DNA of 64,000 nt from Candidatus Heimdallarchaeum aukensis (GTDB lineage: Archaea; Asgardarchaeota; Heimdallarchaeia; Heimdallarchaeales; Heimdallarchaeaceae): assembly GCA_021513695.1 (NCBI GenBank), contig CP084166.1:2656001-2720000 (forward strand). Direction: 5' to 3'. Positions within the stretch are counted from its first letter, which is position 1; every line of letters starts with the position of its first letter. Shown here one piece after another: positions 1,236 through 30,948 of this stretch. A program made the position numbers and the translations under genes. A model generated the notes under the pieces. That model had not been told where the DNA came from. It ran no database searches and worked only from the letters and a program-made list of their open reading frames with translations.

Positions 1236-2723
1236 ATGAATCAAAAATTAAATCCAAATATCGTGACTATTGAGCCAGTCACAAGATTAGAAGGATTAGC
1301 AAAAATAACAGTACTTCTTAATGATGAAGGAAATGTAAAAGATGCTTTTTATCAAGTAGTAGAACTCAGAGGTTTTGAGCGTTTTGTTCAAGGAAGACCA
1401 ATTGAGGAAGTATTGAGAATCACACCAAGAATATGTGGTGTATGCCCCATACCTCATCATCTTGCACCAGCAAAAGCAGCAGATAGGGTATATGGGGTCG
1501 ACCCTCCTAAAACTGCAAAATTATTAAGAGAAATGCTAGCTTTGGGACATATTGTTCATAGCCATATTTTGCATTTCTATGCTTTTGCTCTTCCTGATTT
1601 TGTACTAGGAGAAAAGAAAGAACCAGGAACGCATAACATAATTGGTATAGCAAAAGCATTTCCTGATGTGGCGAAAGCTGCCATTAAAGCAAGAGGAGAT
1701 GCCCAAAAAATACAAGCAATGATTGGTGCAAAAGCAACTCATCCTGTTACTGTAATTCCAGGAGGAATAAGTAAAGGAGTAACGAAGGAAGATACAGAAA
1801 AGATATTAGAAATGAGCAAGAATATCGTTGAATTCGGTAAACTGGGTCTTAAGGTCTTTGAAGATTTAGTAGTTAAAAATAAAGATCAAATGGATCTTAT
1901 AAACAGTGACGCCTATCAGATGGATACCTATTATATGTCAATTGTAGGCCCCGATAATACGCTCGATTTCTATAATAGTCAAACAGTTAGAGTAATTGAC
2001 AGTAAAGGAAAAGAATTTGCAAAATTTGAAGCAGAAGATTATTTAGACCATTTAGATGAACATGTTGAACCATGGACATATCTCAAGTTCCCCTATTTGA
2101 AAAAGGTAGGTTGGAAGGGACTTGTTGATGGACCGGATAGTGGTATGTATAGAGTAAATGCTTTAGCACGATTGAACGTTATAGATAAGATAACAACACC
2201 TCTCGCCCAAGAAGCAATGGAAATTATGTATGAAGGTCTAGGTGGAAAACCTGCTCATCACACTTTAGGTTTTAACTGGGCTAGGTTAGTGGAAATACTA
2301 TACAGCGGTGAGAGAATGGTTGAACTAGCTGAAGATCCTGACTTTTATGGTACAAAGTTCAGAGAACAGCTAACCAAGGATATGATTACAGGTGAAGGGG
2401 TGGGAGCCATAGAAGCACCAAGAGGAACTTTATATCATCACTATAAGACTGATAAAGAAGGAAAAGTAACCAAAGCTAATATCATAGTAGCAACCACCAA
2501 CAATAATGCTGCGATTTGTTTAAGTGTGAAAAAAGCCGCTCAAGAAATGATTAAAAACGGTCAGTATAATGAGGATGGCTTAAATAAAATAGAGATGGCT
2601 TTTAGAGCTTATGACCCTTGTTTAGCATGTGCTACCCACGCCATGGTTGGACAAATGCCACTGAAAGTAGAAATATATGATTCTAAGAAAAATAAGATTA
2701 GAGAGTTGACACGTAAACTATGA
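1236..2723 (+). CDS. mvhA: [NiFe] hydrogenase large subunit (Mvh/group 3-like)
   Basis: The N-terminal Ni-ligand motif RICGVCPIPHH and the C-terminal DPCLACATH (DPCxxCxxH) are both present. The start lies 3 nt after the small-subunit stop. Confidence 0.9.
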   Translation: MNQKLNPNIVTIEPVTRLEGLAKITVLLNDEGNVKDAFYQVVELRGFERFVQGRPIEEVLRITPRICGVCPIPHHLAPAKAADRVYGVDPPKTAKLLREMLALGHIVHSHILHFYAFALPDFVLGEKKEPGTHNIIGIAKAFPDVAKAAIKARGDAQKIQAMIGAKATHPVTVIPGGISKGVTKEDTEKILEMSKNIVEFGKLGLKVFEDLVVKNKDQMDLINSDAYQMDTYYMSIVGPDNTLDFYNSQTVRVIDSKGKEFAKFEAEDYLDHLDEHVEPWTYLKFPYLKKVGWKGLVDGPDSGMYRVNALARLNVIDKITTPLAQEAMEIMYEGLGGKPAHHTLGFNWARLVEILYSGERMVELAEDPDFYGTKFREQLTKDMITGEGVGAIEAPRGTLYHHYKTDKEGKVTKANIIVATTNNNAAICLSVKKAAQEMIKNGQYNEDGLNKIEMAFRAYDPCLACATHAMVGQMPLKVEIYDSKKNKIRELTRKL

Positions 2724-3226
2724 AAATAGCAATTATCGGCCTGGGAAACCCCATTGTTGGGGATGATGCTGTCGGAATAAGAGTCTTAGATTACATAAAA
2801 GAGAATAAGACTCTTCCTTCCTTTGTAGACATAATGGTCGATGTAAGCCTTTCTGGAATAGGTTTAGTTGAACTATTCAGAGGATATGACAAAGTGATAA
2901 TAATTGATTCTATGCAATCTAATCAATTTGAACCAGGTACAGTTCTAAGACTCAACCCTGACCAATTTGTAAGTGCATTACACGTTTCAGATTATCATAA
3001 TATGGACTTTTTTACTGCTTACGAATTCGGTAAAGAGATATATGATGATTTACCACCAAATGAACAAATTGTTATCCTCGGAATTGAGATTAATTATATT
3101 ACTGAATTTAGCGATCAGCTATCTCCAGAAATAAAGTCAAAATTTGATGATATTGTAAATGATGTTTATCAATTTATTAAAAAAGAAATAAATCAAGAGA
3201 AGGAGATTATACGCAATGTCCTTTGA
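2720..3226 (+). CDS. hydrogenase maturation endopeptidase (HycI/HoxW/FrhD family)
   Basis: MKIAIIGLGNPIVGDDAVGIRV is the typical N-terminus of this protease family. At 168 aa it is the expected size. Its ATG overlaps the mvhA stop (ATGA). Confidence 0.8.
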   Translation: MKIAIIGLGNPIVGDDAVGIRVLDYIKENKTLPSFVDIMVDVSLSGIGLVELFRGYDKVIIIDSMQSNQFEPGTVLRLNPDQFVSALHVSDYHNMDFFTAYEFGKEIYDDLPPNEQIVILGIEINYITEFSDQLSPEIKSKFDDIVNDVYQFIKKEINQEKEIIRNVL

Positions 3227-9394: not shown

Positions 9395-10801
9395 TTAGAT
9401 AAAATCTCCCGTTTCTATTTTCTGTGGGAGGTAGAAGTTTGTAATAAATTGTGGGTCACGTGCATTTAATGCTTGTATTTCTGCTTTATAACCTGTATTT
9501 ATTAGGATTTCAAGTTGTTCTTGCCATTTTGGTTTTCTCTTTACGAACTCTTCTTCAAGCATTAACTTTGATCTTCTTATGTCTTTTTGAGTCATTTTGA
9601 TTAGTGCTTCTCTAGGAATATCAAATCCACTTTCAGGTTTTAGATCACTTGGGAGCAAACCTAACCATTTAATATTTGGCACTGCAAGATGGGTTGATTC
9701 GAAACTAAGAGCTTTACTTCCAACGCTATATACTCTCATGATTTCGAATCCGTAAGGGTCAGCATCCATAATGGCAAGAATAGGTAATTGTAAGTCATCA
9801 TTTATTTTCTTTAGAAACTGTCTTGTTGCCATGTCAGGTTGACCTTTAGCTGTAACTAAAATGCTTGGTACATAATCGTAAAAATGGTCTTCTGCTAACC
9901 TGTTAAAAATAGCATCTTTTTCAATAACTAAACAAAATTCAGCATCACTTTCTAAATCTTCGATGTCATCTATATTTGGTGAAATAGCTTTTCCTGAACC
10001 GATAGCTCTACAATCTATAAGATCACCCTTTTCCTTGAATTGTAACTTTCCTACAACAATACCTTTAGACGATGCACTAACATTTAGTGAAGTCCTCGTA
10101 GCTTGTATCATTGCTCCTAAATCTTCAATAAGAGAGTCTGATACTGCTTGTTTCTTAAACGCATTCACATTCATGTAGAAAATATCTCTTTTTGTACTGT
10201 GAATATCACGTGATAGTATGTCATGAAGAAGTCTCATTAATATTGACATTTGTTCAATCGTGCTTACAGAGGATAAACTCCTAAATTGGCGTTCTATCAT
10301 TTGTCTACCAATAAGTACTAATTCTTGTTCTTCATCAAAACCAATATTTCTCTTTCCTCTTGAAGGAATTTTAAAACTAGCTTCATCAGGTTTGTTAAGT
10401 GCTTCATTCAAAAATAATAATGCTGCTTCAACAATTTTATTTTTAGCTTTTTCCGAAGACATTGTTTCTACATTAGTTACACCATAAGGTAACTCATAAT
10501 CCTGCAATAAAGTAAGTTCGTTTCTAAGTTTCCTTATTTTATCAACTGGAACTTTTCTTTTTATTTCAATTCTCATTAATTCTTTCTTAAGAGGATAATT
10601 ACCTAAGGTTTTACCTTTCTCTAGAGGATACCACTTCTTTCCGCTTCTCAAAAAGAGTACAAAAGATCCTTTTTTAAGTTCAAATTCTTCTTGTAATATT
10701 TGAAATAATTCATTTATCTGAATACTGTTATCAAAACTCATTTTTACTTCAGTTGAAGGCAATATTGTTGCATTTTTTACTAAAAAATTATAGTTTACCA
10801 T
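9395..10801 (-). CDS. top6A: DNA topoisomerase VI subunit A (Spo11 family) with N-terminal extension
   Basis: It has the catalytic-tyrosine motif STKRDIFY (Tyr209 by my count), the Toprim Glu in CLVIEKDAIF, and the Toprim DxD in IMDADPYGFEI. At 468 aa it is about 100 aa longer at the N-terminus than the ~370-390-aa archaeal enzymes. Confidence 0.9.
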   Translation of the reverse strand: MVNYNFLVKNATILPSTEVKMSFDNSIQINELFQILQEEFELKKGSFVLFLRSGKKWYPLEKGKTLGNYPLKKELMRIEIKRKVPVDKIRKLRNELTLLQDYELPYGVTNVETMSSEKAKNKIVEAALLFLNEALNKPDEASFKIPSRGKRNIGFDEEQELVLIGRQMIERQFRSLSSVSTIEQMSILMRLLHDILSRDIHSTKRDIFYMNVNAFKKQAVSDSLIEDLGAMIQATRTSLNVSASSKGIVVGKLQFKEKGDLIDCRAIGSGKAISPNIDDIEDLESDAEFCLVIEKDAIFNRLAEDHFYDYVPSILVTAKGQPDMATRQFLKKINDDLQLPILAIMDADPYGFEIMRVYSVGSKALSFESTHLAVPNIKWLGLLPSDLKPESGFDIPREALIKMTQKDIRRSKLMLEEEFVKRKPKWQEQLEILINTGYKAEIQALNARDPQFITNFYLPQKIETGDFI

Positions 10802-10810
10802 TTTTCCACC
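10802..10810 (-). promoter_or_regulatory. 9-nt top6B-top6A spacer containing a Shine-Dalgarno-like GGTGG (translational coupling)
   Basis: The minus strand reads ...ACA AAA TGA GGTGGAAAA ATG GTA... The top6B stop is at 10811-10813 and the top6A ATG is at 10799-10801. Confidence 0.6.
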
Positions 10811-13800
10811 TCATTTTGTACTCCTTTTTTTGGTTTCAATTTTTGTATCAGCTGAAATTTCATCTAAAGTTGTTTGTTTTGTTCGCTTTGAAGTTGTTGT
10901 TTTCTTTGTTGTTGTACTTGGTCTCTTTGTTTTAGTAGTCGTTGTTTTCTTTGTTGTTGTACTTGGTCTCTTTGTTTTAGTAGTCGTTGTTTTCTTTGTT
11001 GTTGTACTTGGTCTCTTTGCTTTGGTAGTCGTTGTTTTTACAAAAGGAATTGTCTGTTTGATCTTCTTTATATCATTATAAGTCATCTCTAGCTTTCCTT
11101 CAAGCTGAGATGTCGGATAAGCAATAAATTCTCCAATTGTATTAATTCCAAGTGAGTTCAACTTATTTCGTATTTGCTGTTTAACATCTAATTTTTCTAT
11201 TGGCTCTTCTATTAACTTTAGTAATTTTTGAACATTTTTGTTTTTGAAAATATCTTTTCTCTTCGTACGATTATCAGCAAATATCAACTCTTCAAACGAA
11301 GATATCCCTATTTCTTTTAATTTTGATATAATCTCACTGCTCATAAATGGTGTACTTTTCACTATTTGCGTTTTACCCTTCTTTGCAATTTTTAGAGATT
11401 GAGGAGTTAAAGTTGCAAAATAGTTTCTTAACTGCCTTTCTGTTATATTAGTAATTTCAGTCAGTTCGTTAATTTTTGTATTAAAAACATCCCAGAGAGA
11501 ATACTTCTGTTTATGGTATAATTTAAAGATACTGTTTGGTTTATCCTGCATTAGTGCATAGAATGAGTAAATTGGGTATGAAAGAAGTTCTTTTAATGTG
11601 GATATCTGTCTGATTGATAACTCTGTTTGTTCTTTAATTCTCTTATCAGAAACTGATAAATGTATAATGTGGGAATACCCACCGTTTTCCAATATGGATT
11701 TTTCAGTATCTGAAAATAGACCTAAATCTTTAATCCTATAGCTATTTAGTTCTAATTGCTCTTTCACTTTAGTCATGTTAAGAGAGTTAAGAAGTTCAGT
11801 AAATTCTGCACGTTGTTTTTCTGTAAATTTAATCTGTAAATCATCTATATTTTGTAGGAAGAAAAGATCATAAACTTGTTCATAACCTCTTTTTGCTAGT
11901 TGAAAAAGTATATTCTTTTGACGTATAAATAATGCTAATGATGCTCTAAAACAAGAAAGAACATCTTTTACTTTCATGGATAAGTCGCTGATATTTTTCT
12001 CTTCAAACAAAGCAATTAGTTCACCTAATGAATTTATATCATTTTCATTTAGCTCGTTAATTATTTCTTTATCGTTTACAAAATCTATAAGTTTAGAATT
12101 GCTTTGAGATGCTAATGAATCTAGATCATGGAACGGAATTTGAGATAAAAGGTTTTTAAGGACAGTTATGTTTGAAGATTTATTTAATAATAGTAAATCA
12201 TAAACTGTTTTTGTATTACTTTTTAGTAGAAGCCTAAATGTTTCCTTACTCTCAAAGACAAGTGGAAGAGAGTAAATTTTTTGTTCAATTCTTAAACGGA
12301 GTTTTTCCGTGATCTTCCATCTCTTTGAAGTTTTTGATTTTGATACAATATTAAACACGTAAGCCTCTTCTATAGAGAAAATGTGACCTTGACTTAAAAC
12401 ATCTAATTCAGTTTTATCCAAAATTGTTTCAGGAATGGGGGTTAACTTAGATGCTAGAGTACGTAATGTTTCTAGTGATAGATTTCGAATCTGACGTATT
12501 AGTCTATTATCGTCGATTATCTGACTTAACTGGTATCTAGGTTTTAAAATTAAATCTCCTATTGTTAAGTTGCCATATTGTTTGAATTTCTCTTTATTTT
12601 CAAAACTTTCATTGACTAGCAAAATAACATGCCTATTTAGAAATTGTAAGTATTCATTAAAGTGTAAAGTTATGGTCTCTGGGAAAGAACTTGTAATTTT
12701 GTCAAATTGCTTTTTATCATATTTCTCCAAGAGAAGTAAGGATTCAAGGGTATATTGGACTTTTAGTTCATCTTTTTCAGGAAGATTCAACTTTTCTTCG
12801 AATTTGGTTGGTTTTGAGAAAATAAATGAGTAAATATCAAGTAGTCTCTTGGATACTTGAGAATTTACTTTTAGAGAATCATGATGTATATTGAAGAAAA
12901 CTAATTGTTGAAAACTTAAGTCTGGGAGTTTTTCGTCAAAATATCGCGAAGAGAGTTTTTGTAAAAGTCCAATTTTTGTTCTTAATGAAGGTGAAAGGTT
13001 AGAAACAACATCAGTGTTTTCAAAGAGATCAAGATAATTCTTAATACCATTTTCTCTCAATTCAGCAATATCAAAATCTTGTAGAACAATGTTTGTTTTT
13101 AGAGCAGGGGGGTTGCTTATTCTAGAAATAGTAATCTTACTAAGAAAAGTGTCAACTTCACTAATGTTTGTGCTTATAATTTTTGCAAGAGCTGGCTTAG
13201 ATAACAAAAGCATTTCTTGTAGAGTACTTACTTTGGATAAAAGTTTTAACCAATTTTCGAGAGGAAGTTGTGGGAAAGAAATCAGATAAATAGATTTGTT
13301 TAATATCTTTTGAACATTATTTCGTAATTTACTTCTCAATTTACAGTGTTTTTTTGATAAATCATAAACCAAATCGTCAATAACTGTATAATATTTCAGT
13401 AATTTTTTCTTTGTTTCACTATCAAACAGCATAATATTGGAAAGTTGAACTCTTTTATCTCTCAATTTTTTAATTGTTTTAACATTCAAAGTTGAGAGAA
13501 CATGATTAACTTTCTCAAGTTGTTTTTCTGATAAGAATGAAGAATATGAAATAGGTTTAATTAGTAAATCCTTTAGTGTTTCGATTTTATGTTCATTCAG
13601 TTTTTCTACTTCTTTTTCAGTGAAATCTGTTATTATAGAGACAGAACTGTTAAGGAGGTTTAGAATCTCTAATCCTGTTTTAGTAAGAAACTCTTTGTTC
13701 ATGTATAAAACAGAAATAAAATCAATGATATTTGAGATCTCTGGAATTTCAATGTTTTTGCTGAATAAGTTTTTTGAATTAATAGTACCAAGAAAATCTT

Positions 13801-16800
13801 TTGTCTTTAACGTAAGAGATAATGTTTTCTTTTTATCTTTAATCAGATTACTAATTATGGTGTTATAATCACCAAAGCTGACTAGTTGATCGTTTTTAAC
13901 AAGATCTCTGATGGTGAAAAGATTGTTGTCAAAGTATTTTGTTTCAATCTCTTCAAATTTTAAGGAGTTAATAGAGCTTAAGAATAGGATTGATGTATCT
14001 AAAATTTGTTTTATTTTTGTTCTTATTTTTTCTATCTTTTTAATATCATAAAGCCAGTTGTATATTGAATTCTCTTCTAAATCTGAAAAACTATAGAATC
14101 CATAAGATAACAAAGTAGATTTTTCTTTTTCACTAAGAAATGGTAAATCTACAAAATGATTTGGCTTATCTTTTTCAATTGTTTTCTTGATTTTATCAAT
14201 CTTTATTGATGAGCGTAGTTTCAATATTTGATCAAGTTTAATCCTTGATTCTTTTGCGACTGTTTTATACGGAATAAGCAGTAGATCTGCGATAGTGTAT
14301 GTTCCACCTTTTTTAAGGTTAGTTTCTATTTTCTCTTCTAGTCCTAAATATCGAATATTGGCTAGTAAATATGGGCTAATTTCTGCAAATATGCTCTTAT
14401 CTTTTAGATTAACATCTCCAAGTAATTCTTGATAAGATAAGTACCCAAGTTTCATTGCTTTTTCTTCATATGAACCTAAAGGAGGAATAAAACTTTCAAG
14501 ATGTAGATTTTTTAACATTGATAGACTTGATAAAATTTCATCAACCATTGCATCATCTAGATTTTGGATAGAGGAAATAACATCTATAATGTAAACTAAC
14601 TTCTTGTTATAACAAGATTTTATTGTATCTAATGTCAATATAGGTAGATTGTTTATGTTTCTACTTAATTTCATTCTAATATCTTTAATTTCTTCAATGT
14701 ATGAATCTGGTAGGCTTAAGAAAAACTCTTCAGGGAAGTAATATAGATATTCAATTGAGAAAACTCCCAAACTGTATAGCTTTTGAACTAATGACTTATT
14801 TAACTTTAAGTTTGCAATATCAAGAGTAGAGAATTGAAGGGAAGATAGATTCCTAATGAAAAGAGAATTGTTCTCTTTTATGGCTTTATCCAATTTTGGG
14901 AGAAGGGTTTCCCACAGGTGAATAGGAATATGAAGGTAGTCATAATATGTTTTTTTATTTTTTAAAGATTCATTAATATTTTTTGTTGAAATCCCGAGTA
15001 TACGCTCAATTGTCTTTATTGGTGTAAAGAGAATAGGTATATTCACTATCAACTTTTCTTTTTCATCTTTGTTTATTTCTAATTGATCTACATCATGATA
15101 AAATAGTTGAATTAAAGAGTAAATCTCATTTTCATTAAGATATTCGATTGTAGAAACCTCGGGTTTTTTGATTGTTTTTGGACTAGTACCTTCTTTAGCT
15201 TCACGTTTTTTAATAAGTGGAAGTTTACCCTCTTTTGTTAGTTCTTTTTCAGTTAAGGATGGTAAAAGGTTTAAGTCGATTCCATAGAGTTTAAGTTCAG
15301 AAACAATATTTCTTTTACTAATCTGTAATTTAATAGTGTTTATCTCTTTATACTCTATTTCAAATAATTTACCCAAAGAAACTGATGGAATAGATAAAAA
15401 TTCAAGTATAGTGTTAATCTTATTTTCAAAGAGAATAGAGTTTTGTTGCAATGAAAGTGAACTTAAGAAGGAAATTGGAGTTGTTCCAAACAATGAGAGA
15501 GTCTTTTTTATTGATGATAAATTCTTATCTTCTGAACTGTAATCCTGTAAACAAAGAAGTTGATCTAAATACTCAATATTAATCTTTTTTAGATATAGCT
15601 TCTGTTGTTTGGACAAAAATTTTACATCACGTAACTTAATTGCCCATTTAGGTATTTGAAAATCAGATAAAGAACTTACTACATATTCTGCTAGTTCTAT
15701 GTCAATATTGTCTGGAGGAAGAAGTAATAAATCAAGAATAAGTTTTTTATCTTCCTTCATCAAATTTCTCAAAAACTCAAGCTGATCTATTTGAGAAAAT
15801 TTATCTAACCAAATAATTGGATATTTTACCATACTTGTAAGAGAATTAGAATTACTAAAGAGAATTTGAGAACTTATGACAAATGGTTGAGGAAGCAGAT
15901 CTAGTAGATTAATAACATCGGGAGAGGTCTTAATGTCTAGTTTATCACTTTTATTTGATAGAATGTCCAGATGATCTTTGGGAATTAAGTTAACTAATTT
16001 TTCTTTAGAAAATTCTTTTACAAAACGGATAATCTCACTTCTAGCATTTGATGGAATAGTTCTCTTTTCTTCAGAGCTAAGAGTAAGAAGTTCAATAATA
16101 TTTTTAACTCCATTTTTCCATAAATCAAGTTTGACGTCTAAACTCATGTCTGAGATAGAAAAAATATTTAGACATAAACCATAGATTAGTTCTTCAAGTT
16201 TAGCAATACTACTCGCTTTTTCTATTTTTTCACTTTCTGAGAATATAAGCAAGTATTCTGGTACCAACCCAAAGATATCTTCAAATGATGCTTTTGAAAG
16301 GTTGAATTTAAAGTCTGTGAGTGTACTTATTAATTCTTTATCTTCTTCAAGAATAGGTATGCCTGAACTAAGGCTTATGTTTCCCTTTCTTTTATCTTTT
16401 AACTCTTCAGGAATGGAATTGAATATCTTCTTAAGATCTTTTTCTCTAACTATAAAGAGGTCAATAACTCGTAGAATGCGGTTTTTTGCAAGACTACGTT
16501 TAATAAAGCGTGAAAGGTTTGAAATTCTGAAGACTGAAGAGTTACAAAGAGAGAGAAAATTATCAATATTTTCCTTAAATTCTTCAGAAAATGATTTTAT
16601 TTGATAACAAAGACCATAAAGATCTTGAACTGTGTCCTTATTCAGTTTTTGTAAGCTAAGAAGATTTCTCTTTGACAATAACGCAAGAGATTCAAGTTTT
16701 ATTCCTTTTTCTTCAACTTCATTTAGTATTTTTTTAACTGAAATATTTTCTTTTATTTTGATAATTTCAGTTTCAGGTATGTCTAAAATTAATGATATCG

Positions 16801-19800
16801 TAGTGATGTCTTCTGTTAAGAAGGTGAGTATATCCCCGACGCCAGAATAAACAAGTTTTAACATTTGTTCTAACTCTAAATCCAAGAAGAATACAGATGA
16901 GAGATACAACTTTGCTTCTTTAAATACATTCATGTTCACTAGATATGGGTATGATTTTCTGATTTCAGACATTCTAGAAATGAAGTCTTGAATTGAATAA
17001 ATCCCTAATTCATGTAATTTTTCTACATATTCACTTGTTATTGATGGACAATTTTCTAGAGGAATTGCAAAACGAAGTCTTTTCTCTTTTAATTCATCTA
17101 AAGATAACAAGTCAAATATATGAAATTCATCATAAATAGGATTGTTTAGAATTTGTGATAATTGTCCTTTTTCAAAAAGAGACAAATCGATTACTGAGTG
17201 AATATCCTGTAATTCTAGTTTCTTTATTTCTTCAAAAGACAAGAAACTAAGAAAAGTTATTGAACCTGATAATATTTCTTTAAATTCTCTATATTTCTCT
17301 TGCTTTAAGATACTGGATGCACCCATTCTTACTCCAGCATAGTACAAAGTTTCTATGTCTGATATTCCTATATCTCGTAATTTAGAAATTTCAGTTTCCG
17401 TGATGAGAGAAGAAGGCATAATAGGGTGAGATCTTGCTTTGTGTAATTCAACAATTTCACTATAAGATAGATTTTCCTTTATTTCATTAATCCTTTTTTG
17501 TGTTTCATTAGATATTTCAGAAAGTTTTTTGGTTGGTGTTGAATAAAAGTCTATTAATGTTGTAATTGAAGATCTGCTAAGAGGAAGAGCAAGATTAACG
17601 TCCAAGTTTAGTGAAGAAATAGGAATAGACAAATCACCTATAAGTTTATCTAAACTATTTTCTTCACCTAGTTTGTTTTTAATTTCCAAGAGAGGAGAGT
17701 TCTCCTCGAATTCAAGTTCAAATAAGCTCCCTAAAGTAATTATAAAGTATTTATTCCTCATATCTTCACTTAAAAGATTGAGAAAAGGTGTAATTCCAAG
17801 TGGTAATTCAAAAACTGAACGAATAAGTGTAATGTTACATTTTTCAAAAGCTAATTGTCTTTCAAATTCGCTGAGGGTTTTTATCAAATCTGTGCTGGAA
17901 ATAACATCAAGTAATGTTAACTCTTCAATATCTTCCAGAATAGTAGAAAAGAAGTCTTTATTGTAAGCAGTTGCAGAAAGAAAATCAAAGTAGTGATAAG
18001 CTCTCAAGTCAATTAATTTAGAAGAATAGTCTGAAACAGTTCTAAATAGCGTTCTATCCGTTAAATCGCTATCTAATATGAATATTAAATGGTAAAGGTG
18101 GGTTATTTGGTTTTGATTAAAAATAGTCAAAGAATAATCTGAAATCTCCTGAAAAATCCGTAAAGGAAGTGATAATATTTTCTTTAATGTGAAAACTTTT
18201 CTCCAGATTGATGAGTTTCTGTCGATGAAAACTTCATCGGGACAGTAGAAAAGTTCTTGAATTGATTGAAATCCTTCATAACTGTAAATTGTTTCTCTAC
18301 TTAGCGTTCTTTGTTCATTTTTGTCAAAAAGTCTAGTTTCATATGCATAGATTGCTCGCGCCTCATATTCTTCTCTTATTCTCTGTGATGTTAAAATGTC
18401 AATTATTTCCTTTGTTTCTTTTGTTGTAATGTTTAGGATATTACTGAGTTTAACAGATGAAGTAGAAACGAAATCAACTATAGTTAATATACCCGCTTTT
18501 CTCAATTCTTCAGTTTGTGAAAAAGAGATATTTGGTAAGAAATAAACAGGGAGACTGAAAAAGTAAAAAATTTCACCAAGATCTAGACTTCTCTTAATAT
18601 TATCAAAACGTTCGTCGGGAATCCCTGTTCTTTCCATTAGAACTTTAGATGACGTAAGTAGAAAACCTAACAATGTATTTATTTTGTTTTTCTTTAAGAG
18701 CTTAATTATATCTGGATCTAACATGTCTGACAAGTGCTTAAATCGTAAATTTAGCACATTTTTTAAATTCTGAACTATCTCCCATGGAATTGTTCTTATT
18801 GCCCATTTTTCTTGCTGAGTAGAAAAGTATAGGTCCTCAATGGTAAAGATGTTGTTAGTTTCTAAAATTTCTACTATCGATGGTCTAAAGATATCAAGTT
18901 CAGAAATATCTGTTCCAGTTTCACTAATCCTGATATTTTTCTTGTATTTTTTAGCTTCTTCTAAATCAATTTTTAAAATAGAAGCGATTGTTTCATCACT
19001 AACAAGGAAAAAGTCAATGATTCTTCTGATTCCAGTTTTTCTTAGAGCATTCAGCTGTTCATGGGATAAGCTTGTTATTTCAATTTCTTCAATTTCTTCC
19101 TCTTGTTTTGTTTCTTCATTTAATATCTTCTTCTTTGTGGTTTTTTCCCAAGTAACTAGCGTCAGGGGAGAACGCAATAGTTTCTTGAATTTTTCAATTA
19201 CACCCCATTTTATTATGGGAGCACCAAAAGTGTAAGGGTGTGTTAAATAAAATAGCTGGTCTATAGAATTGTAACCAATAACAAGTAAAGAACGGATTTC
19301 TTCAGGTGAAAAACGTTCTGAATTTTCAAAATCAAAGGAGATTATTGATTCATACTTACCACTAGATACTTTCTCGTAGAATGGTTGTCCATCTCTATTT
19401 ACATCAAAATTGTTTATTAACTCATCAAAATTCTTCTTTGAAAAATTAAGTATCGTGCTTAATTCATCAAAACTGTAATTTAAAAATTGGTGCAGAGAGT
19501 AAATCTTTTTTGAAGCTAATACTTCATAATCTTTAAGTTTCAAGCTTTTTATACGAGTGATTGGTAATTGCAAAAACTGATAGAAATCAATTATTTCGTG
19601 AGATAACAAAACTTTTTCTGCAAACTCATCAGTATCTTTAAGATTTTTACTATTTATATTGTCGTAGAGTTCAAGTAAAATTTTTTTGTCTTTATTTTTT
19701 GAAATTTCTGTCTCAATAAATACAGGTGTAAGTTGAAGGAAATCTCTTATTGTATTTACATCCTTGGTTTTGAGCTTAAGAAGAGCATCATTCAATGACT

Positions 19801-22800
19801 TTGCTTTAGATTTTGTTGGGGCTAACTTTGCTAAAAATATTAGATCTTCATTCATGAATTCTCTAAAGTTATTCATCTTAGTTAAAAGATCTGAAATCGA
19901 CGGAAGTTCTTCTTCAATATAAAAGTAAAACAACTCTTGTATTGTTGTTTGTTGTTCATTGAATTGCTTAACCAATCTTGGAAAGTGTTTTTTTATTATT
20001 TTTAAATTTCCTTTGTATCTTTCTTTATTTTTTGTAATCTTGTTAGCAGATATACTTTGTTTTAGACGTATAATTTCTTGTTCGTTAAGGTTTAATACCA
20101 AAGAGAGTTCTTTATTACTCCATATTAGAAACCTGCCTATACAGTTTACTCCAATTTCATTCAAAACGTTAATTTTCTCGTTTAGTTCAGGAAAAGCAAA
20201 AATCAAGGGAGTTCGTAATAGTAAGTAATCTGAAACATATTGTTTCTTTGTTTGTTCATCTTTAAATTCAAAATTCTCTGGTTGAGAATATAGAATGTCC
20301 TCTACTGTATAAATTTCATATTTACTTGCTTTGTTCTTCAAAGATAGAAAGTTAGGAATGGGCGTACCTATCTTTTTCTTTATTCTTGCAATCTCGCTTT
20401 TTAATAAACCCATTTCGCGTAATTTTTTCGATGGTGTAATCAAGAATGATGTGGAAGTAAATATCTTGTTTTCTAGCAATTTTTCTTCAGCTTTTTCACT
20501 AATCACTTTTAAGTGTGATAGGTCAAGGTCTTTATTTACTTCATTAAGATGAGAAAGAATGCGAAACTTTGATTCTTCTAATAGACTATCAACAAAAACA
20601 CTTAGTTCTTTTTTCATTAACGTTCTTAATTTAGCGTTTGCATATTGTGCTAAGGTTTCTATATTCGCTGATTTAAGACTGTCTAGTATGTTTTTTCTTA
20701 TATTGTCATCTATGGTTGATATTAGTCCTAGTTTGTTAAGAGGGATAGATCTCTCGCTGTTAGCTAGAATAGTGAAAAATCTAGTATAAATAGAACGCTC
20801 TAATTCTTTGATTTCTAAAAGGTCTTTAGTTGGCGTTTTAAGAAAATTATCTATTGTCTCTATCTTTCTTCTATGAAAAGCATTTTTAGAATATCCATCT
20901 ATCCAATCAGGTTTCATTTTTGTAATGTTGACCTTTAGAAAATCAGGAAACTTTTCTGAAACATGTGAAAATACCTTTTTAACGTAATCAATCAACATTT
21001 CTGTTAAATCATTATCATATTTAAACGAAAAAGGCTCATTGAACTTATAAATAAAATCCTCTAACCCCTTAAACTTATTTGAAAAGTTGGGATAACTTGT
21101 TTTTATATAATTGAAATCTGGATACAGAAATTCTTCTTTTAACTCTGAATAATCAGACATAGTTTCTAAATTAAATTTAAATTCTTCGATAAAGATCGAC
21201 AACTCTACTGTTTCTTGGCCATCTTGAGATTTTGTAACTTCGTTAATTAGCTTAAATTTGTTATCTTCTATTAGACGTTCTACTAAACCTTCAACTAAAC
21301 GCAATTGTGTAGCTTCTGTAGCTAAATAATGATAGCTATTTTGAATCCATCTTTGATATAATGCTTCATTGAAACTACTACTAGTTCCTTGACGTGCAAA
21401 CCTCTTATCTATCATTTTATTTGTTAATGCTTTTAGTGGGAGTTCAGGGCTCAACTTAGACCTGTCTAGTTCATAAATTGTTCTTTGTTTTATTCTTGAA
21501 ACTTCTTTTTTTGAAAGATTCAAAATAGGAGCTAGTTCTGAAACAGGTATGGAAAGAAACTTTCCAATTGTTAAAATATCACTTTTAGCACAACTTTTCT
21601 TGTATTTATCAGGGCACCACACATTAAGTTCAAAAATGGGTGTCCCTAAAGGAACAAAATTTCTAATTTTCTTTTTTGCTCCGTGAGCTAGAGCTGCTGC
21701 AACTTTATATTTTTCTTTATTTATGTTTGTATAAACTATTTTTTCATTCTCTAAAATTCTTGCGAGGTTATCAATTACAACAGGTGCTGATCGTACAAAA
21801 CGGGATAATCGTGCATGTTCTCTTTTCCTTCTTTTTGCTCTACTAAGGAATGTTTTAAGTCTTCTACCAAGTTGTTGTAAAGCTAACCTAATCTCTTCTT
21901 CAATTTCTGGGACGGTTGAGATATACTCCTTACTCGTTTCAGGAAAAGGTATTTTTGTACTTACAATTGATACTGCAATCGCGAGAGGATCTGATTGTCT
22001 TGTAAGACCGTATTCACTCCAATTAAGCGAAGAAACTACTTTTGTAATAACGTCATTTCCCGCACCAAAAATTAAAGGAATTCTATTTGCATATCGATAA
22101 ATTATTTTGTTGTCGACTGACGTGCTTCCTTTTTGTTGAGCATATTTTGATACTCCCCCCCCATAACCTATTGCTGCTTCAACGATAAAAGGATGACCAG
22201 AATAAGCTTTTGGAGGACGAGAAATCGCTTCTACAAACTCTGGTTCAAGTTCTTTTTCTAAACCTTTTCTTAATCTTGCTGCTCCTAAAGGAGAAAGAGC
22301 ATCACCTTGTGGAGCATCAAATCTAAAGATTCTATCTCTTTTTCTTTTTATTTCTTTAGCCTCTTGGTAGGCTTTGATAAATCCTTCATGAACTATTCTT
22401 CTAATTTCTTTAGAAGTAAGGTCGCTAGGCTTTTTATTAGGGTCAATTTCTAAAATCTGAAAGAACTCTTCAGCTACTTCTTTTCTTACTCCCATAAAAT
22501 CTTTTGACAGAAAATCAACTAGATTTTCTGCAGAAGTAGCAGCAATTTTTGCTTTAAACTGAGTGATATCACATCCAAATGGGTGTAACTGAATTACTTT
22601 AGGAGGGTCGGGCATATCATCTACTACTTTTTGGAAAACTAATGTTTCACTTGTTCCTTCTTCATCTCCTGGAAGAACTACAGTAAAACTTGCATAGGGA
22701 GTAATTATAGCTAATTGTTTAAAATACTCCTTAATACTGTTCTTTGCTAGATTCCAAGCTCCAGTAAAAGTTATACTTATCTCAGTACCGCTAGTGTGCA

Positions 22801-23365
22801 AATATCCTGGGTCATCTGGATTATATTCGTGTTGTTCCATAATAACAGGTTCATTTTTTTCCAAGTTGATCATTAAATGAACTTCTGTAGTCATTTCTTC
22901 CATGAAGTATCTGCTCTTTATCCTTGCAGGAAGATCTACAGATGACATAGAATGTAGTAGACACATCTTGGCTCCTAAACCAAATCTGCCTCTAGTTTGA
23001 ATTACTCCATATTTTGTTCCTGTTAATACTCTACCAAAAAGATTTGGAATCTCATGACCAGGAACACCTACACCGTTATCTCTACATGTTAACTGAAGAA
23101 AATCAAGATGTTTTTCTAACTGTTTATATCTGGTAATATCTAATAATTCATTAATTTCAGAACTTGATAACTTCCTTAATTCAATATATATTTCAGGGTT
23201 CACACCTAGTTTTTCTGCTGCATCTAAGCCATTCTCGACCAATTCTCTAACAGAGGTAAAAACAGCTCGCATCGAGTTGCCAAAACCTGCAATGGCCTTA
23301 TTTTCATTGAAGAAAGCAGCTGCACTCATTTTTCGTGTTTTATTTTCTTCAGCCACAAAATTCAC
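10811..23365 (-). CDS. top6B: giant DNA topoisomerase VI subunit B fusion protein (Top6B core + ~3,500-aa HhH-like repeat array + basic K/T-rich tail), 4,184 aa
   Basis: This is a single uninterrupted 12,555-nt ORF. The N-terminus is colinear with Top6B: FFNENKAIAGFGN..RAVFTSVRELVENGLDAA (Bergerat N-box), RDNGVGVP (G1), TRGRFGLGAKM (G2), HPFIVEAAIGYGGG and YRYANRIPLIFGAGNDV (transducer). The start is uncertain. The track's GTG 23365 lies inside the AAGGAGTG SD-like string, so GTG 23356 (8 nt after GGAG) or ATG 23329 are more plausible. Confidence 0.9.
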   Translation of the reverse strand: MNFVAEENKTRKMSAAAFFNENKAIAGFGNSMRAVFTSVRELVENGLDAAEKLGVNPEIYIELRKLSSSEINELLDITRYKQLEKHLDFLQLTCRDNGVGVPGHEIPNLFGRVLTGTKYGVIQTRGRFGLGAKMCLLHSMSSVDLPARIKSRYFMEEMTTEVHLMINLEKNEPVIMEQHEYNPDDPGYLHTSGTEISITFTGAWNLAKNSIKEYFKQLAIITPYASFTVVLPGDEEGTSETLVFQKVVDDMPDPPKVIQLHPFGCDITQFKAKIAATSAENLVDFLSKDFMGVRKEVAEEFFQILEIDPNKKPSDLTSKEIRRIVHEGFIKAYQEAKEIKRKRDRIFRFDAPQGDALSPLGAARLRKGLEKELEPEFVEAISRPPKAYSGHPFIVEAAIGYGGGVSKYAQQKGSTSVDNKIIYRYANRIPLIFGAGNDVITKVVSSLNWSEYGLTRQSDPLAIAVSIVSTKIPFPETSKEYISTVPEIEEEIRLALQQLGRRLKTFLSRAKRRKREHARLSRFVRSAPVVIDNLARILENEKIVYTNINKEKYKVAAALAHGAKKKIRNFVPLGTPIFELNVWCPDKYKKSCAKSDILTIGKFLSIPVSELAPILNLSKKEVSRIKQRTIYELDRSKLSPELPLKALTNKMIDKRFARQGTSSSFNEALYQRWIQNSYHYLATEATQLRLVEGLVERLIEDNKFKLINEVTKSQDGQETVELSIFIEEFKFNLETMSDYSELKEEFLYPDFNYIKTSYPNFSNKFKGLEDFIYKFNEPFSFKYDNDLTEMLIDYVKKVFSHVSEKFPDFLKVNITKMKPDWIDGYSKNAFHRRKIETIDNFLKTPTKDLLEIKELERSIYTRFFTILANSERSIPLNKLGLISTIDDNIRKNILDSLKSANIETLAQYANAKLRTLMKKELSVFVDSLLEESKFRILSHLNEVNKDLDLSHLKVISEKAEEKLLENKIFTSTSFLITPSKKLREMGLLKSEIARIKKKIGTPIPNFLSLKNKASKYEIYTVEDILYSQPENFEFKDEQTKKQYVSDYLLLRTPLIFAFPELNEKINVLNEIGVNCIGRFLIWSNKELSLVLNLNEQEIIRLKQSISANKITKNKERYKGNLKIIKKHFPRLVKQFNEQQTTIQELFYFYIEEELPSISDLLTKMNNFREFMNEDLIFLAKLAPTKSKAKSLNDALLKLKTKDVNTIRDFLQLTPVFIETEISKNKDKKILLELYDNINSKNLKDTDEFAEKVLLSHEIIDFYQFLQLPITRIKSLKLKDYEVLASKKIYSLHQFLNYSFDELSTILNFSKKNFDELINNFDVNRDGQPFYEKVSSGKYESIISFDFENSERFSPEEIRSLLVIGYNSIDQLFYLTHPYTFGAPIIKWGVIEKFKKLLRSPLTLVTWEKTTKKKILNEETKQEEEIEEIEITSLSHEQLNALRKTGIRRIIDFFLVSDETIASILKIDLEEAKKYKKNIRISETGTDISELDIFRPSIVEILETNNIFTIEDLYFSTQQEKWAIRTIPWEIVQNLKNVLNLRFKHLSDMLDPDIIKLLKKNKINTLLGFLLTSSKVLMERTGIPDERFDNIKRSLDLGEIFYFFSLPVYFLPNISFSQTEELRKAGILTIVDFVSTSSVKLSNILNITTKETKEIIDILTSQRIREEYEARAIYAYETRLFDKNEQRTLSRETIYSYEGFQSIQELFYCPDEVFIDRNSSIWRKVFTLKKILSLPLRIFQEISDYSLTIFNQNQITHLYHLIFILDSDLTDRTLFRTVSDYSSKLIDLRAYHYFDFLSATAYNKDFFSTILEDIEELTLLDVISSTDLIKTLSEFERQLAFEKCNITLIRSVFELPLGITPFLNLLSEDMRNKYFIITLGSLFELEFEENSPLLEIKNKLGEENSLDKLIGDLSIPISSLNLDVNLALPLSRSSITTLIDFYSTPTKKLSEISNETQKRINEIKENLSYSEIVELHKARSHPIMPSSLITETEISKLRDIGISDIETLYYAGVRMGASSILKQEKYREFKEILSGSITFLSFLSFEEIKKLELQDIHSVIDLSLFEKGQLSQILNNPIYDEFHIFDLLSLDELKEKRLRFAIPLENCPSITSEYVEKLHELGIYSIQDFISRMSEIRKSYPYLVNMNVFKEAKLYLSSVFFLDLELEQMLKLVYSGVGDILTFLTEDITTISLILDIPETEIIKIKENISVKKILNEVEEKGIKLESLALLSKRNLLSLQKLNKDTVQDLYGLCYQIKSFSEEFKENIDNFLSLCNSSVFRISNLSRFIKRSLAKNRILRVIDLFIVREKDLKKIFNSIPEELKDKRKGNISLSSGIPILEEDKELISTLTDFKFNLSKASFEDIFGLVPEYLLIFSESEKIEKASSIAKLEELIYGLCLNIFSISDMSLDVKLDLWKNGVKNIIELLTLSSEEKRTIPSNARSEIIRFVKEFSKEKLVNLIPKDHLDILSNKSDKLDIKTSPDVINLLDLLPQPFVISSQILFSNSNSLTSMVKYPIIWLDKFSQIDQLEFLRNLMKEDKKLILDLLLLPPDNIDIELAEYVVSSLSDFQIPKWAIKLRDVKFLSKQQKLYLKKINIEYLDQLLCLQDYSSEDKNLSSIKKTLSLFGTTPISFLSSLSLQQNSILFENKINTILEFLSIPSVSLGKLFEIEYKEINTIKLQISKRNIVSELKLYGIDLNLLPSLTEKELTKEGKLPLIKKREAKEGTSPKTIKKPEVSTIEYLNENEIYSLIQLFYHDVDQLEINKDEKEKLIVNIPILFTPIKTIERILGISTKNINESLKNKKTYYDYLHIPIHLWETLLPKLDKAIKENNSLFIRNLSSLQFSTLDIANLKLNKSLVQKLYSLGVFSIEYLYYFPEEFFLSLPDSYIEEIKDIRMKLSRNINNLPILTLDTIKSCYNKKLVYIIDVISSIQNLDDAMVDEILSSLSMLKNLHLESFIPPLGSYEEKAMKLGYLSYQELLGDVNLKDKSIFAEISPYLLANIRYLGLEEKIETNLKKGGTYTIADLLLIPYKTVAKESRIKLDQILKLRSSIKIDKIKKTIEKDKPNHFVDLPFLSEKEKSTLLSYGFYSFSDLEENSIYNWLYDIKKIEKIRTKIKQILDTSILFLSSINSLKFEEIETKYFDNNLFTIRDLVKNDQLVSFGDYNTIISNLIKDKKKTLSLTLKTKDFLGTINSKNLFSKNIEIPEISNIIDFISVLYMNKEFLTKTGLEILNLLNSSVSIITDFTEKEVEKLNEHKIETLKDLLIKPISYSSFLSEKQLEKVNHVLSTLNVKTIKKLRDKRVQLSNIMLFDSETKKKLLKYYTVIDDLVYDLSKKHCKLRSKLRNNVQKILNKSIYLISFPQLPLENWLKLLSKVSTLQEMLLLSKPALAKIISTNISEVDTFLSKITISRISNPPALKTNIVLQDFDIAELRENGIKNYLDLFENTDVVSNLSPSLRTKIGLLQKLSSRYFDEKLPDLSFQQLVFFNIHHDSLKVNSQVSKRLLDIYSFIFSKPTKFEEKLNLPEKDELKVQYTLESLLLLEKYDKKQFDKITSSFPETITLHFNEYLQFLNRHVILLVNESFENKEKFKQYGNLTIGDLILKPRYQLSQIIDDNRLIRQIRNLSLETLRTLASKLTPIPETILDKTELDVLSQGHIFSIEEAYVFNIVSKSKTSKRWKITEKLRLRIEQKIYSLPLVFESKETFRLLLKSNTKTVYDLLLLNKSSNITVLKNLLSQIPFHDLDSLASQSNSKLIDFVNDKEIINELNENDINSLGELIALFEEKNISDLSMKVKDVLSCFRASLALFIRQKNILFQLAKRGYEQVYDLFFLQNIDDLQIKFTEKQRAEFTELLNSLNMTKVKEQLELNSYRIKDLGLFSDTEKSILENGGYSHIIHLSVSDKRIKEQTELSIRQISTLKELLSYPIYSFYALMQDKPNSIFKLYHKQKYSLWDVFNTKINELTEITNITERQLRNYFATLTPQSLKIAKKGKTQIVKSTPFMSSEIISKLKEIGISSFEELIFADNRTKRKDIFKNKNVQKLLKLIEEPIEKLDVKQQIRNKLNSLGINTIGEFIAYPTSQLEGKLEMTYNDIKKIKQTIPFVKTTTTKAKRPSTTTKKTTTTKTKRPSTTTKKTTTTKTKRPSTTTKKTTTSKRTKQTTLDEISADTKIETKKRSTK
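10883..11035 (-). repeat. 45-bp tandem repeat encoding the (KRPSTTTKKTTTTKT)n basic tail of the giant ORF
   Basis: Plus-strand copies at 10911-10955 and 10956-11000 are identical 45/45. Flanking copies (11001-~11035 and ~10883-10910) are diverged. The protein reads TTTTKAKRPSTTTKKTTTTKTKRPSTTTKKTTTTKTKRPSTTTKKTTTSKRTKQTT. Confidence 0.9.
11048..21730 (-). repeat. protein-level array of degenerate ~60-70-aa helix-hairpin-helix units (RNA polymerase alpha-CTD-like / RadA N-domain-like) within the giant ORF
   Basis: The recurring pattern is P-h-x-x-L.....L...G-I/V-x-T/S-h-x-D/E-h-h...S..-L..IL.h...E...I. Examples are LRKAGILTIVDFVSTSSVKLSNILNITTKETKEIIDIL, LNEIGVNCIGRFLIWSNKELSLVLNLNEQEIIRLKQSI, LRKTGIRRIIDFFLVSDETIASILKIDLEEAKKYKKNI, LKKNKINTLLGFLLTSSKVLMERTGIPDERFDNIKRSL, LKEIGISSFEELIF and PIEKLDVKQQIRNKLNSLGINTIGEFIAYPTSQLEGKLEMTYNDIKKIKQTI (last unit, nt 11048-11203). 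I recognised roughly 35-45 units by eye. The repeats are degenerate at the DNA level. aa ~640-890 look non-repetitive and aromatic-rich. Confidence 0.6.
21731..23365 (-). other. portion of the giant ORF corresponding to a canonical Top6B (GHKL ATPase, H2TH, transducer), aa 1 to ~545
   Basis: The motifs listed for the parent CDS apply here. The last recognisable Top6B-like helix is EIRLALQQLGRRLKTFLSRAKRRKREHARL (aa ~491-520, nt ~21806-21895). The domain boundary is approximate. Confidence 0.75.
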
Positions 23366-29637: not shown

Positions 29638-30948
29638 ATGGAAGAAAATTCAAAAACTCTTGTTAGTGGGATTAAAGCAAATTTAGTATATCCAGAATCT
29701 AAAGTAAAACCAGTCTTTAATTTTGAAAATATGATAGTTGAACATTATAAACGATTTCCACGAACTGCAGTTTTAATCGAAAATCCAAAATATGCAAAAG
29801 CTCTAATGAACCCTCTAAAATCATTTTATCTAGTACCTATTGCCATTTTCAAAGTCAAATTTAATACTGTTCTCTCAATGAAATTTTGGAATTATATCGC
29901 TTTGTGGTTATACATCCTTATTGTTTCTATTCCTAACTCTGTTTTTATGTATATAACGTTTAGTAGCAACAAAATTTTGGGAGACATAACTTTTTCAGTT
30001 ATTATACCCATGTTGGTTTCATCCCTAGTAGCTCTTTGGTATTTGAAATTTACTCATGATGGTTTCTTTGGATTGATTATAGAGAAAAAAGTTGAATGGT
30101 TAGAAAAGCCTGTAAAAGAATATTATGATAAATATTATGATAAAAAATTTAGCTTAAATATTGTTTTAGTTGTTTTAAGTGTCTTAACATCATTAGGAGT
30201 GGGAATTCCTGTATTAATTTATGCTTCAAGTCAAGGTTTACAATCTGCAATTATATTTGGAGTTATAGGAATGATTTGTAATTTCGTAGTTTTTTATATT
30301 TTCTACTTATCTTTACAATATACTATATTAAACACCAAAATCTATTCTAAAGTATTAAACGCAATAAAAAGTAGAATTGATATCTATCTCAATGAGTATG
30401 GAACTTTGTTAAATAGTGAAAATTACGAAATTATTTGGGCTCTAGGAGATACCCCTGGAAGATCAATAAGGCAGCTTGAAAATATACCCGTGGCTGGAGT
30501 GTTATCTGCGTTAATAGTAACAATTGCCATGTTGATGGGAACAATTAATCAAGCAGTCCTTGGAGTAGTCAAAGGGAATATGCCAACAGTGAATGTATTC
30601 AATTCGCAAATGAGTCTTAACGCAATAATAGCTGCAATCTCCCTAGTTATAGCTATCATAATAGTACTAATTGTTGTTCTTCCATTGTATATCTTCAGTG
30701 GAAAAATGAAGAAATTCAAAATTAAAGCTTTAATAGAACTTGATAACTATATTTTTGCAAATGTAATGGAATTTGAACAACGCTATTCTGAACTTGCAAA
30801 GCAAGAAACAGTAACAATATTTGCTCTCAGAGAGTATATATCGGGTATGAGAACAATTCCTATTTCAGCAGCAAAGATTATCAAAAGTTTAACAGCTGTT
30901 GCAGTATGGTTTGTAAATGTCCGAAAAATAATTAGAGCGTTTAATTAA
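29638..30948 (+). CDS. polytopic membrane protein of unknown function (upstream partner of the tubulin/FtsZ-like gene)
   Basis: It is 436 aa with many long hydrophobic segments, for example IALWLYILIVSIP, ITFSVIIPMLVSSLVALWYL, IVLVVLSVLTSLGVGIPVLIYA, IIFGVIGMICNFVVFYIFYL and IIAAISLVIAIIIVLIVVLPLYIF. I recognised no family motif. Its stop lies 10 nt before the next ATG. Confidence 0.5.
   Translation: MEENSKTLVSGIKANLVYPESKVKPVFNFENMIVEHYKRFPRTAVLIENPKYAKALMNPLKSFYLVPIAIFKVKFNTVLSMKFWNYIALWLYILIVSIPNSVFMYITFSSNKILGDITFSVIIPMLVSSLVALWYLKFTHDGFFGLIIEKKVEWLEKPVKEYYDKYYDKKFSLNIVLVVLSVLTSLGVGIPVLIYASSQGLQSAIIFGVIGMICNFVVFYIFYLSLQYTILNTKIYSKVLNAIKSRIDIYLNEYGTLLNSENYEIIWALGDTPGRSIRQLENIPVAGVLSALIVTIAMLMGTINQAVLGVVKGNMPTVNVFNSQMSLNAIIAAISLVIAIIIVLIVVLPLYIFSGKMKKFKIKALIELDNYIFANVMEFEQRYSELAKQETVTIFALREYISGMRTIPISAAKIIKSLTAVAVWFVNVRKIIRAFN

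Follow-up and report, generated by a model that had tools for sequence, protein, structure and literature searches.

Organization of the top6B–top6A locus

A 64,000-nt stretch of the genome of Candidatus Heimdallarchaeum aukensis (contig CP084166.1 of assembly GCA_021513695.1, positions 2,656,001 to 2,720,000 of the forward strand; hereafter the window, in whose own numbering positions are given) was analyzed with regard to a 45-nt tandem repeat situated near the 3′ end of top6B, a giant gene encoding subunit B of topoisomerase VI (Topo VI). The gene is read from the minus strand and is followed by top6A, which encodes the partner subunit. The features referred to below are the following:

10811–23365, minus: giant top6B open reading frame (ORF), 4184 aa from a GTG start, annotated as 4181 aa
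10814–11044, minus: basic tail of Top6B, predicted to be disordered, aa 4108–4184 (77 aa, from F4108)
10892–11038, minus (coding strand): tandem array, period 45, 3.3 copies, 97% matches, score 273 according to Tandem Repeats Finder (TRF)
11018–11038, minus: leading partial (half) unit, KTTTTKA
10973–11017, minus: unit 1 in codon register, KRPSTTTKKTTTTKT
10928–10972, minus: unit 2, KRPSTTTKKTTTTKT, the same as unit 1 at 45/45 bases
10883–10927, minus: unit 3, KRPSTTTKKTTTSKR, with a diverged 3′ end
10856–10879, minus: short linear motif KQTTLDEI, family pattern [KR]-Q-x-[TS]-L-x-[DE]-hydrophobic
10811–10813, minus: top6B stop codon TGA
10806–10810, minus: Shine–Dalgarno (SD)-like GGTGG, 4 nt before the top6A start codon
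10799–10801, minus: top6A start codon ATG
9395–10801, minus: top6A, 468 aa, with Pfam matches to TP6A_N (3.6e-19) and TOP6A-Spo11_Toprim (2.4e-59)

The protein UJG40514.1 of Ca. Heimdallarchaeum aukensis, whose source genome is circularised and 3.08 Mb in size, corresponds to the giant ORF minus three N-terminal residues. A Topo-VIb_trans Pfam match was found at aa 352–518 (E 3.5e-57, 193 bits, cutoff 24), while the match to the GHKL family HATPase_c was weak and fell under its cutoff (21 bits versus 26.4). The assignment to Topo VI subunit B is based on the transducer domain together with the adjacent partner gene top6A, and the homologues carry the same annotation. An N-terminal GHKL and transducer core is followed by approximately 3,600 aa of helix-hairpin-helix (HhH)-type units, in which Pfam matches to RAD51D_N and RNA_pol_A_CTD were obtained. 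Across Asgard lineages, Top6B falls into size classes of about 2,311, 2,400–3,000, 3,500, and 4,200 aa. Our literature searches found neither the giant HhH-array Top6B nor the basic tail or the terminal motif described, and returned no more than general remarks about C-terminal Top6B extensions specific to certain lineages; the host of the repeat is thus apparently an unusual Top6B that is undescribed in the literature. The gene top6A begins 9 nt downstream of top6B, an adjacency kept in 31/31 related loci, and its product is identical to UJG40513.1. In this Top6A, the TP6A_N domain does not begin until residue 182, and the preceding approximately 180 residues have no Pfam match.

A coding minisatellite in the Top6B tail

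An earlier note on this DNA, made by reading the letters without database searches, had pointed to two identical 45-mers at plus-strand positions 10911–10955 and 10956–11000, flanked by diverged copies. Both our self-match analysis and TRF confirmed this arrangement, and the peptide given there agrees with the in-frame translation of the minus-strand units. The perfectly periodic core extends over 124 nt (10896–11019) and contains an exact self-match of 79 nt at an offset of 45. The longest self-match in 2000 codon shuffles of the tail averaged 10.6 nt and never exceeded 23 nt, and the longest run elsewhere in the window was 14 nt, so that the repeat lies far above what chance or low complexity would give. 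The runner-up TRF array in the 64-kb window scored 56, and no further K/T-rich segment was found in the window when the six frames were examined. The array DNA is strand-asymmetric, the coding strand being approximately 58% A and 20–24% C. With a head-to-tail unit between 10 and 100 nt and a high identity between copies, the array is a minisatellite, and since it is in frame within the Top6B ORF, we regard the repeat as a genuine in-frame coding minisatellite.

Two positional claims of the earlier note require correction. The repeat had been placed at the extreme C-terminus of the protein and immediately upstream of the top6A SD sequence; in fact, 25 more residues, TKQTTLDEISADTKIETKKRSTK, come after the array, including the motif KQTTLDEI, and 69 nt separate the end of the repeat from the top6B stop codon.

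A cis-acting RNA structure at the array was also considered and rejected. The search of Rfam over 10300–11600 gave no match at E ≤ 1, and the mRNA across the array (10790–11060, minus) was predicted to be less structured than 198/200 dinucleotide shuffles (z = +1.87). The mRNA leading up to the top6A start is likewise essentially unstructured by prediction.

Apparent length variation between strains

Array length was compared in six assemblies of one species, namely the window and five others, which are 98.3–99.1% identical over the 12.5-kb gene. Lengths were taken between the fixed anchors FVKTTTTKA and TKQTTLDEI, and the extra alleles were drawn from cluster members and from a locus search based on Top6A. 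Exact-match scans of metagenome and genome contigs with a 27-nt anchor upstream of the array returned none. The alleles are as follows:

L004: 114 nt, in frame
Window: 135 nt, in frame
L036: 167 nt, out of frame
L037: 199 nt, out of frame
L003: 210 nt, in frame
L002: at least 256 nt, the contig ending inside the array

Considered as a candidate variable number tandem repeat (VNTR), the array shows six lengths in six metagenome assemblies, two of which are frameshifted, while two contigs end within it. The units also differ in type. In the window, all are of the TTTTKT type and two are identical; L003 carries three TTTAKT units, of which two are identical, and L002 combines TTTAKT with TTTTKT units. 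Units are thus alike within an assembly and differ in type between assemblies, as slippage or unequal exchange would be expected to produce, and this supports the earlier suggestion that the units are recent and variable in length. The downstream motif was retained in three of the three full-length in-frame conspecific alleles.

A longer array is present in the sister species Ca. H. endolithica (CP084167.1, L005; approximately 89.5% nucleotide identity), whose genome was assembled from Nanopore reads with Canu. There, the array spans about 515 nt (L005 ~1890–2418) and is 3.8-fold longer than in the window, with 26 copies of an 18-nt period according to TRF and units of the KKTTTA/KKPSTTA types; the linker between the last HhH unit and the motif reaches 176 aa, compared with 55 aa in the window. 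In this species, the terminal segment KRTKQTTLDEITADKKIESKKRSTK shows hardly any change.

Reliability of the assembled copy number

For the genome of Ca. H. aukensis, Wu et al. used metaSPAdes (k 21–99) on paired Illumina reads of 150 bp, followed by Nanopore scaffolding (PMC8813620). As assembled, the 124-nt perfectly periodic stretch holds no repeated 99-mer. In a k = 99 assembly graph, any longer true array would form a loop, the shortest traversal of which gives the assembled sequence, and the copy number in the record is to be read as a lower bound. A Logan contig of SRR15988954 ends at window position 10925, within the array. Part of the length polymorphism may be assembly error, and the out-of-frame arrays of L036 and L037 may have the same origin. 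On the other hand, an array with shared unit types was found in seven independent assemblies, including the Nanopore/Canu genome of the sister species, which makes the existence of the array secure and leaves only its copy number in doubt.

The contigs L001, L002, L009, L010, L012, L022, and L027, from independent metagenome-assembled genomes, end no more than a few hundred bases upstream of top6A, inside the Top6B tail; the tail systematically breaks short-read assemblies and yields "partial" or frameshifted annotations. In L027, positions 1–486 hold an array of 18.5 copies of 24 nt that encodes QQRKKLL repeats in its only open frame, in a contig with a coverage of 3.9×. Such repeats look like a K/T-type array read in its +1 frame, and the L027 array probably represents a tail that is frameshifted or misassembled. 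In metagenome-assembled genomes of Heimdallarchaeaceae, the annotated length of Top6B and any "partial" flag or frameshift at the tail should hence be treated with distrust.

Composition and predicted disorder of the tail

Thr accounts for 42% of the 77-aa tail, Lys for 25%, and Arg for 6.5%, and the net charge is +20. It lacks Gly and Asn, and its sole aromatic residue is the leading Phe. Four residues of the protein body are scarce in the tail, namely Asn (5.8% of the body versus 0% of the tail), Ile (10.2 versus 2.6%), Leu (13.8 versus 1.3%), and Glu (8.6 versus 2.6%), a depletion which argues that the composition is selected and is not merely A-rich. When the C-terminal 263 aa were modelled by AlphaFold2 with 13 homologues, a predicted local distance difference test (pLDDT) score above 90 was assigned to residues 1–191, modelled as helical HhH-like units, and scores of 36–46 to residues 192–263, in which no secondary structure (no DSSP elements) was present. 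The Uversky charge–hydropathy relation likewise places the tail on the disordered side (<H> 0.32 versus a boundary of 0.51). The tail is thus intrinsically disordered by prediction, as the earlier note had supposed. When the same 263 residues were searched with Foldseek, single units of about 55 aa resembled the N-terminal domains of RAD51 paralogues and the HhH domains of the RNA polymerase alpha C-terminal domain; this similarity is weak (E > 0.4, template-modelling score ~0.65 on the target), agrees with the Pfam matches, and is uninformative on the tail.

Two motif-based readings of the tail failed. The AT-hook likeness proposed in the earlier note does not stand, as no GRP core occurs in the 77 aa and the nearest sequence is KRPS. 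Nor does the tail of the window contain a match to [ST]P[KR][KR], the pattern of SPKK or histone H1-like sequences; TPKKKT repeats are present in the relatives L006 and L009.

The tail among related Top6B proteins

A whole-protein search retrieved 76 HhH-rich Asgard Top6Bs. Full-length members of the class above 3,400 aa (Heimdallarchaeaceae, Kariarchaeaceae, and allies) all end in a tail rich in K/S/T/P/A with a charge of approximately +20 to +63, whereas the Hodarchaeales-type HhH Top6Bs of about 2,311 aa have no basic tail. Using Top6A as the query, we located 31 related genome loci, in 25 of which both boundaries of the linker could be placed. The tails of the 31 loci are always K/S/T/P/A-rich, with a net charge of +17 to +60, and the distance from the last HhH unit to the motif varies from 48 to 176 aa among the 25 measurable loci. 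Roughly two thirds of the 31 loci have arrays of their own, with periods of 12, 15, 18, 24, 27, 36, or 45 nt, all multiples of three, and with units such as TPKKKT, AKVAK, KPKA, KKPI, or KKPT that are unrelated to the unit of the window. Judged by sequence comparison, it is the composition and charge of the tail, not its sequence, that is conserved among relatives. The expectation that a basic tail is kept at this position thus held across the 31 loci and the class above 3,400 aa.

In alignments of the C-termini, the only alignable segment beyond the last HhH unit is the KQTTLDEI motif, a conserved element of the tail that the earlier note had overlooked. A logo of 36 distinct sequences gave [SKR]-[TS]-[KR]-Q-[TKMIV]-[TS]-L-[LMDN]-[DE]-[MILVF], with the Q, T/S, and L positions invariant. 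The comparison of the family therefore separates what varies (linker sequence, repeat unit, and length) from what is fixed (positive charge and the Q-x-T/S-L motif).

The motif resembles a PCNA-interacting protein (PIP) box without its aromatic pair. The PIP box is defined as QXXhXXaa, and the archaeal consensus peptide is KTTQSTLDSFFK (PMC4929162). Gln at position 1 and Leu at position 4 are each present in 36/36 sequences, while positions 7 and 8 do not carry the aromatic pair, the window having Ile-Ser there; among family members, M/I/L/V occupies position 7 (F in three sequences and Y in one) and a polar residue position 8. Other classes of Asgard HhH-Top6B end in QKSLNAF, QKSLDEY, QKTLDAML, VDKFF, VDQYF, or LDSYM. 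A relaxed PIP pattern was found in 47/70 C-termini compared with 48% of random 45-aa windows of the protein body and is not discriminating. When the motif profile was searched against PDB sequences, only chance-level NEDD4L matches (E > 1) and no PIP-bearing protein were returned. The 64-kb window contains no PCNA gene.

The top6B–top6A junction and the reading frame

In many relatives (among the loci L006–L034), the final codons of top6B include an SD-like GGAGG or GGTG, and the stop codon often overlaps the top6A start (ATGA). Translational coupling of the two genes is plausible, and the downstream ribosome-binding site may be partly responsible for the conserved C-terminal residues (KKGEKS, KGGDK). 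This has little bearing on the repeat. As to the earlier argument that changes in copy number must stay in frame, it holds trivially for whole units, because 45 nt equal 15 codons and any such change is in frame. Two related assemblies have out-of-frame arrays, which may be assembly errors. With a +1 shift, the reading frame stays open across the array up to a TAG inside the motif codons, while a +2 shift meets a stop within the TTTTKT units; either frameshift leads to the loss of the motif.

Proposed role and alternative explanations

We favor, with a probability of roughly 0.6, the reading that this is a slippage-prone tail whose polycationic, disordered composition is under selection and which would act both as a non-specific DNA tether and as a spacer for the C-terminal motif. 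According to this proposal, simple sequence rich in A and C would grow and shrink by replication slippage or unequal recombination in multiples of three bases, so that the sequence and length of the tail would turn over rapidly, even between strains. Selection would keep a strongly positive composition, free of hydrophobic residues and nearly free of acidic ones, a minimum length of roughly 50 residues, and the KQTTL-x-D/E-hydrophobic motif with its basic end. The tail would add affinity or processivity to the HhH array as a non-specific electrostatic tether, with two tails per A2B2 enzyme, and would present the C-terminal motif to a partner on a flexible spacer of variable length.

Several observations weigh against this proposal. 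DNA binding by the tail is plausible, the case for it being built on charge and context. The tail-less Hodarchaeales-type enzymes imply that Topo VI does not, as a rule, depend on such a tail for its function. The more than threefold spread of array length within the genus, together with two conspecific assemblies that are out of frame, would fit weak constraint. The differences between strains, moreover, rest on metagenome assemblies, which are error-prone at such repeats (L001 and L002 end in the array), and a true array of 124 + 45n nt could collapse to the same assembled path.

One alternative is that the tail is functionless, a mutation-driven expansion of A/C-rich sequence tolerated because selection on the disordered terminus of a 4,000-aa protein would be almost absent. 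The six lengths in six near-identical assemblies, the 3.8-fold longer array of the sister species, the unrelated units in relatives, the tail-less Hodarchaeales-type enzymes, and the out-of-frame alleles would all be expected of such neutral sequence. Nevertheless, a basic, hydrophobic-free, and mostly acid-free composition holds over more than 30 lineages with different units, and Asn, Ile, Leu, and Glu are excluded from it even though they are favored in an AT-rich genome and abundant in the protein body; the linker is never shorter than 48 aa, and the motif is retained in all three full-length in-frame conspecific alleles. We therefore consider a purely neutral origin rather improbable. Another view, that the array or at least its three-copy form was produced by short-read assembly of a low-complexity region, draws on the metaSPAdes k-mer range of 21–99 applied to 150-bp paired reads, on the fit of the 124-nt stretch to the shortest k = 99 path, on the ends of the SRR15988954 Logan contig and of L002 in the array, and on the frameshifts in L036 and L037; given that seven independent assemblies carry the array and that similar arrays recur across the family, an artefact is highly unlikely as the source of the array, the doubt being confined to its copy number in this record.

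The remaining alternatives accept the tail as functional and assign it a different role. The repeat might be an entropic linker only, and the KQTTL-x-[DE]-hydrophobic motif a degenerate PIP box with basic flanks that tethers Topo VI to PCNA at replication forks. In favor of this, the Q, T/S, and L of the motif core are invariant and positions 6 and 7 nearly so, in a tail whose remainder cannot be aligned; RTKQTTLDEISA of the window is close to the consensus PIP peptide of A. fulgidus; QKSLNAF, QKSLDEY, VDKFF, and VDQYF endings occur in other Asgard HhH-Top6B classes; the motif is located near the C-terminus behind a disordered linker, as with many archaeal PIP motifs; and in P. abyssi, subunits of Topo VI were co-purified with NucS, itself a partner of PCNA (PMC4929162). 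The aromatic pair, however, is missing from the window and throughout Heimdallarchaeaceae, P0002 has Lys at position 7, and both L024 and the whole Kariarchaeaceae-type class have no motif; the relaxed pattern is also no more telling than background, and the profile recovered no PIP-bearing PDB protein. This reading, with its binding to PCNA, appears unlikely to us. Another suggestion, to which the earlier note had alluded, is that the Thr/Ser-rich units serve as substrates for phosphorylation (KRPS and KKTT being basophilic-kinase-like) or glycosylation that would regulate the enzyme. Seven [KR][KR]x[ST] sites are present, and Ser/Thr account for half of the tail residues. The C-terminal domain of eukaryotic topoisomerase II is a disordered, phosphorylated regulatory region, which would favor this option. 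In relatives, by contrast, the Pro/Ala/Lys units (KPKA, KKPT, AKVAK) offer few or no acceptors, so that Ser/Thr content is not the conserved property, and glycosylation is unlikely on general grounds, being unusual for an enzyme that acts on DNA in the cytoplasm. A modification platform is accordingly given very little credence.

A bolder reading is a Topo VI that would be physically coupled to the replisome in the Heimdall group of Asgard archaea, with the tail as a DNA-skimming leash and the motif (window peptide SKRTKQTTLDEISADTK) as a divergent, non-aromatic PIP box docking the HhH-Top6B on PCNA. Prompted by sequence resemblance, this reading is speculative and quite unlikely; if true, the archaea closest to eukaryotes would possess a type IIB topoisomerase tethered to the clamp. 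The host lineage serves the reconstruction of the eukaryotic replication machinery. Taken alone, the repeat is a coding minisatellite of an ordinary kind within a disordered basic tail; what gives it biological interest is its position on a Top6B of approximately 4,200 aa with an HhH array.

Comparison with known systems

Lysine-rich disordered tails and coding VNTRs are well known, and the unusual part here is the host protein. The C-terminal lysine repeats of Streptomyces coelicolor TopA stabilise the enzyme–DNA complex and raise processivity (PMC5714199). TopA and the Top6B tail share low-complexity, Lys-rich repeats at the C-terminus of a topoisomerase, of lineage-variable length, and Streptomyces TopA ends with a few acidic residues. 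In contrast, TopA is a bacterial type IA enzyme without homology to Top6B, its repeats are Lys/Ala instead of Lys/Thr, and no conserved motif comes after them. The Top6B tail thus matches the TopA repeats in composition and position, whereas a likeness in DNA binding and processivity is only proposed. The C-terminal domain of histone H1 and H1-like bacterial tails (S/TPKK, PAKK, KPAA) are likewise disordered, polycationic, and rich in K/S/T/P/A, and bind DNA non-specifically. The likeness is found in those Top6B relatives with TPKKKT, KKPT, or KPKA repeats; the tail of the window, unlike these, lacks [ST]P[KR][KR], and it is borne by an enzyme and not by a chromatin protein.

With respect to the PIP box of A. 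fulgidus FEN-1 (consensus KTTQSTLDSFFK, PDB 1RXM as cited in PMC4929162), the motif shares Q1, T3, L4, an acidic residue at position 5/6, basic flanks, and a C-terminal location after a disordered linker, and differs by Ile-Ser in the window, or M/I/L/V plus a polar residue in the family, in place of the aromatic pair. As in coding VNTRs, the unit is a multiple of three (45 nt) and copies are identical at the nucleotide level, and copy number appears to differ between strains; the polymorphism of Top6B is inferred from metagenome assemblies, not from reads or PCR. Finally, Villain et al. noted that in archaea that encode gyrase, Asgard among them, Top6B carries C-terminal extensions specific to individual lineages (PMC9348778). 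The immunoglobulin-like C-terminal domain of Methanosarcina mazei Top6B (PMC9348778) is comparable as an extension after the transducer domain in a lineage reported to encode gyrase, but it is a globular domain of about 100 aa, compared with approximately 3,600 aa of HhH units and a disordered basic tail in the protein described here.

Neighboring genes

Two adjoining ORFs are situated farther upstream of top6B. The first (29638–30948) encodes 436 aa without a Pfam match, and the second (30959–32098, plus strand) encodes 379 aa with a sub-threshold match to the Tubulin/FtsZ GTPase domain (E 3.2e-7, 31.3 bits, cutoff 33). Directly upstream of top6B lies a gene encoding a 978-aa LVIVD-repeat protein (23504–26440, minus strand), which is also the neighbor of top6B in the conspecific contigs L002 and L003.

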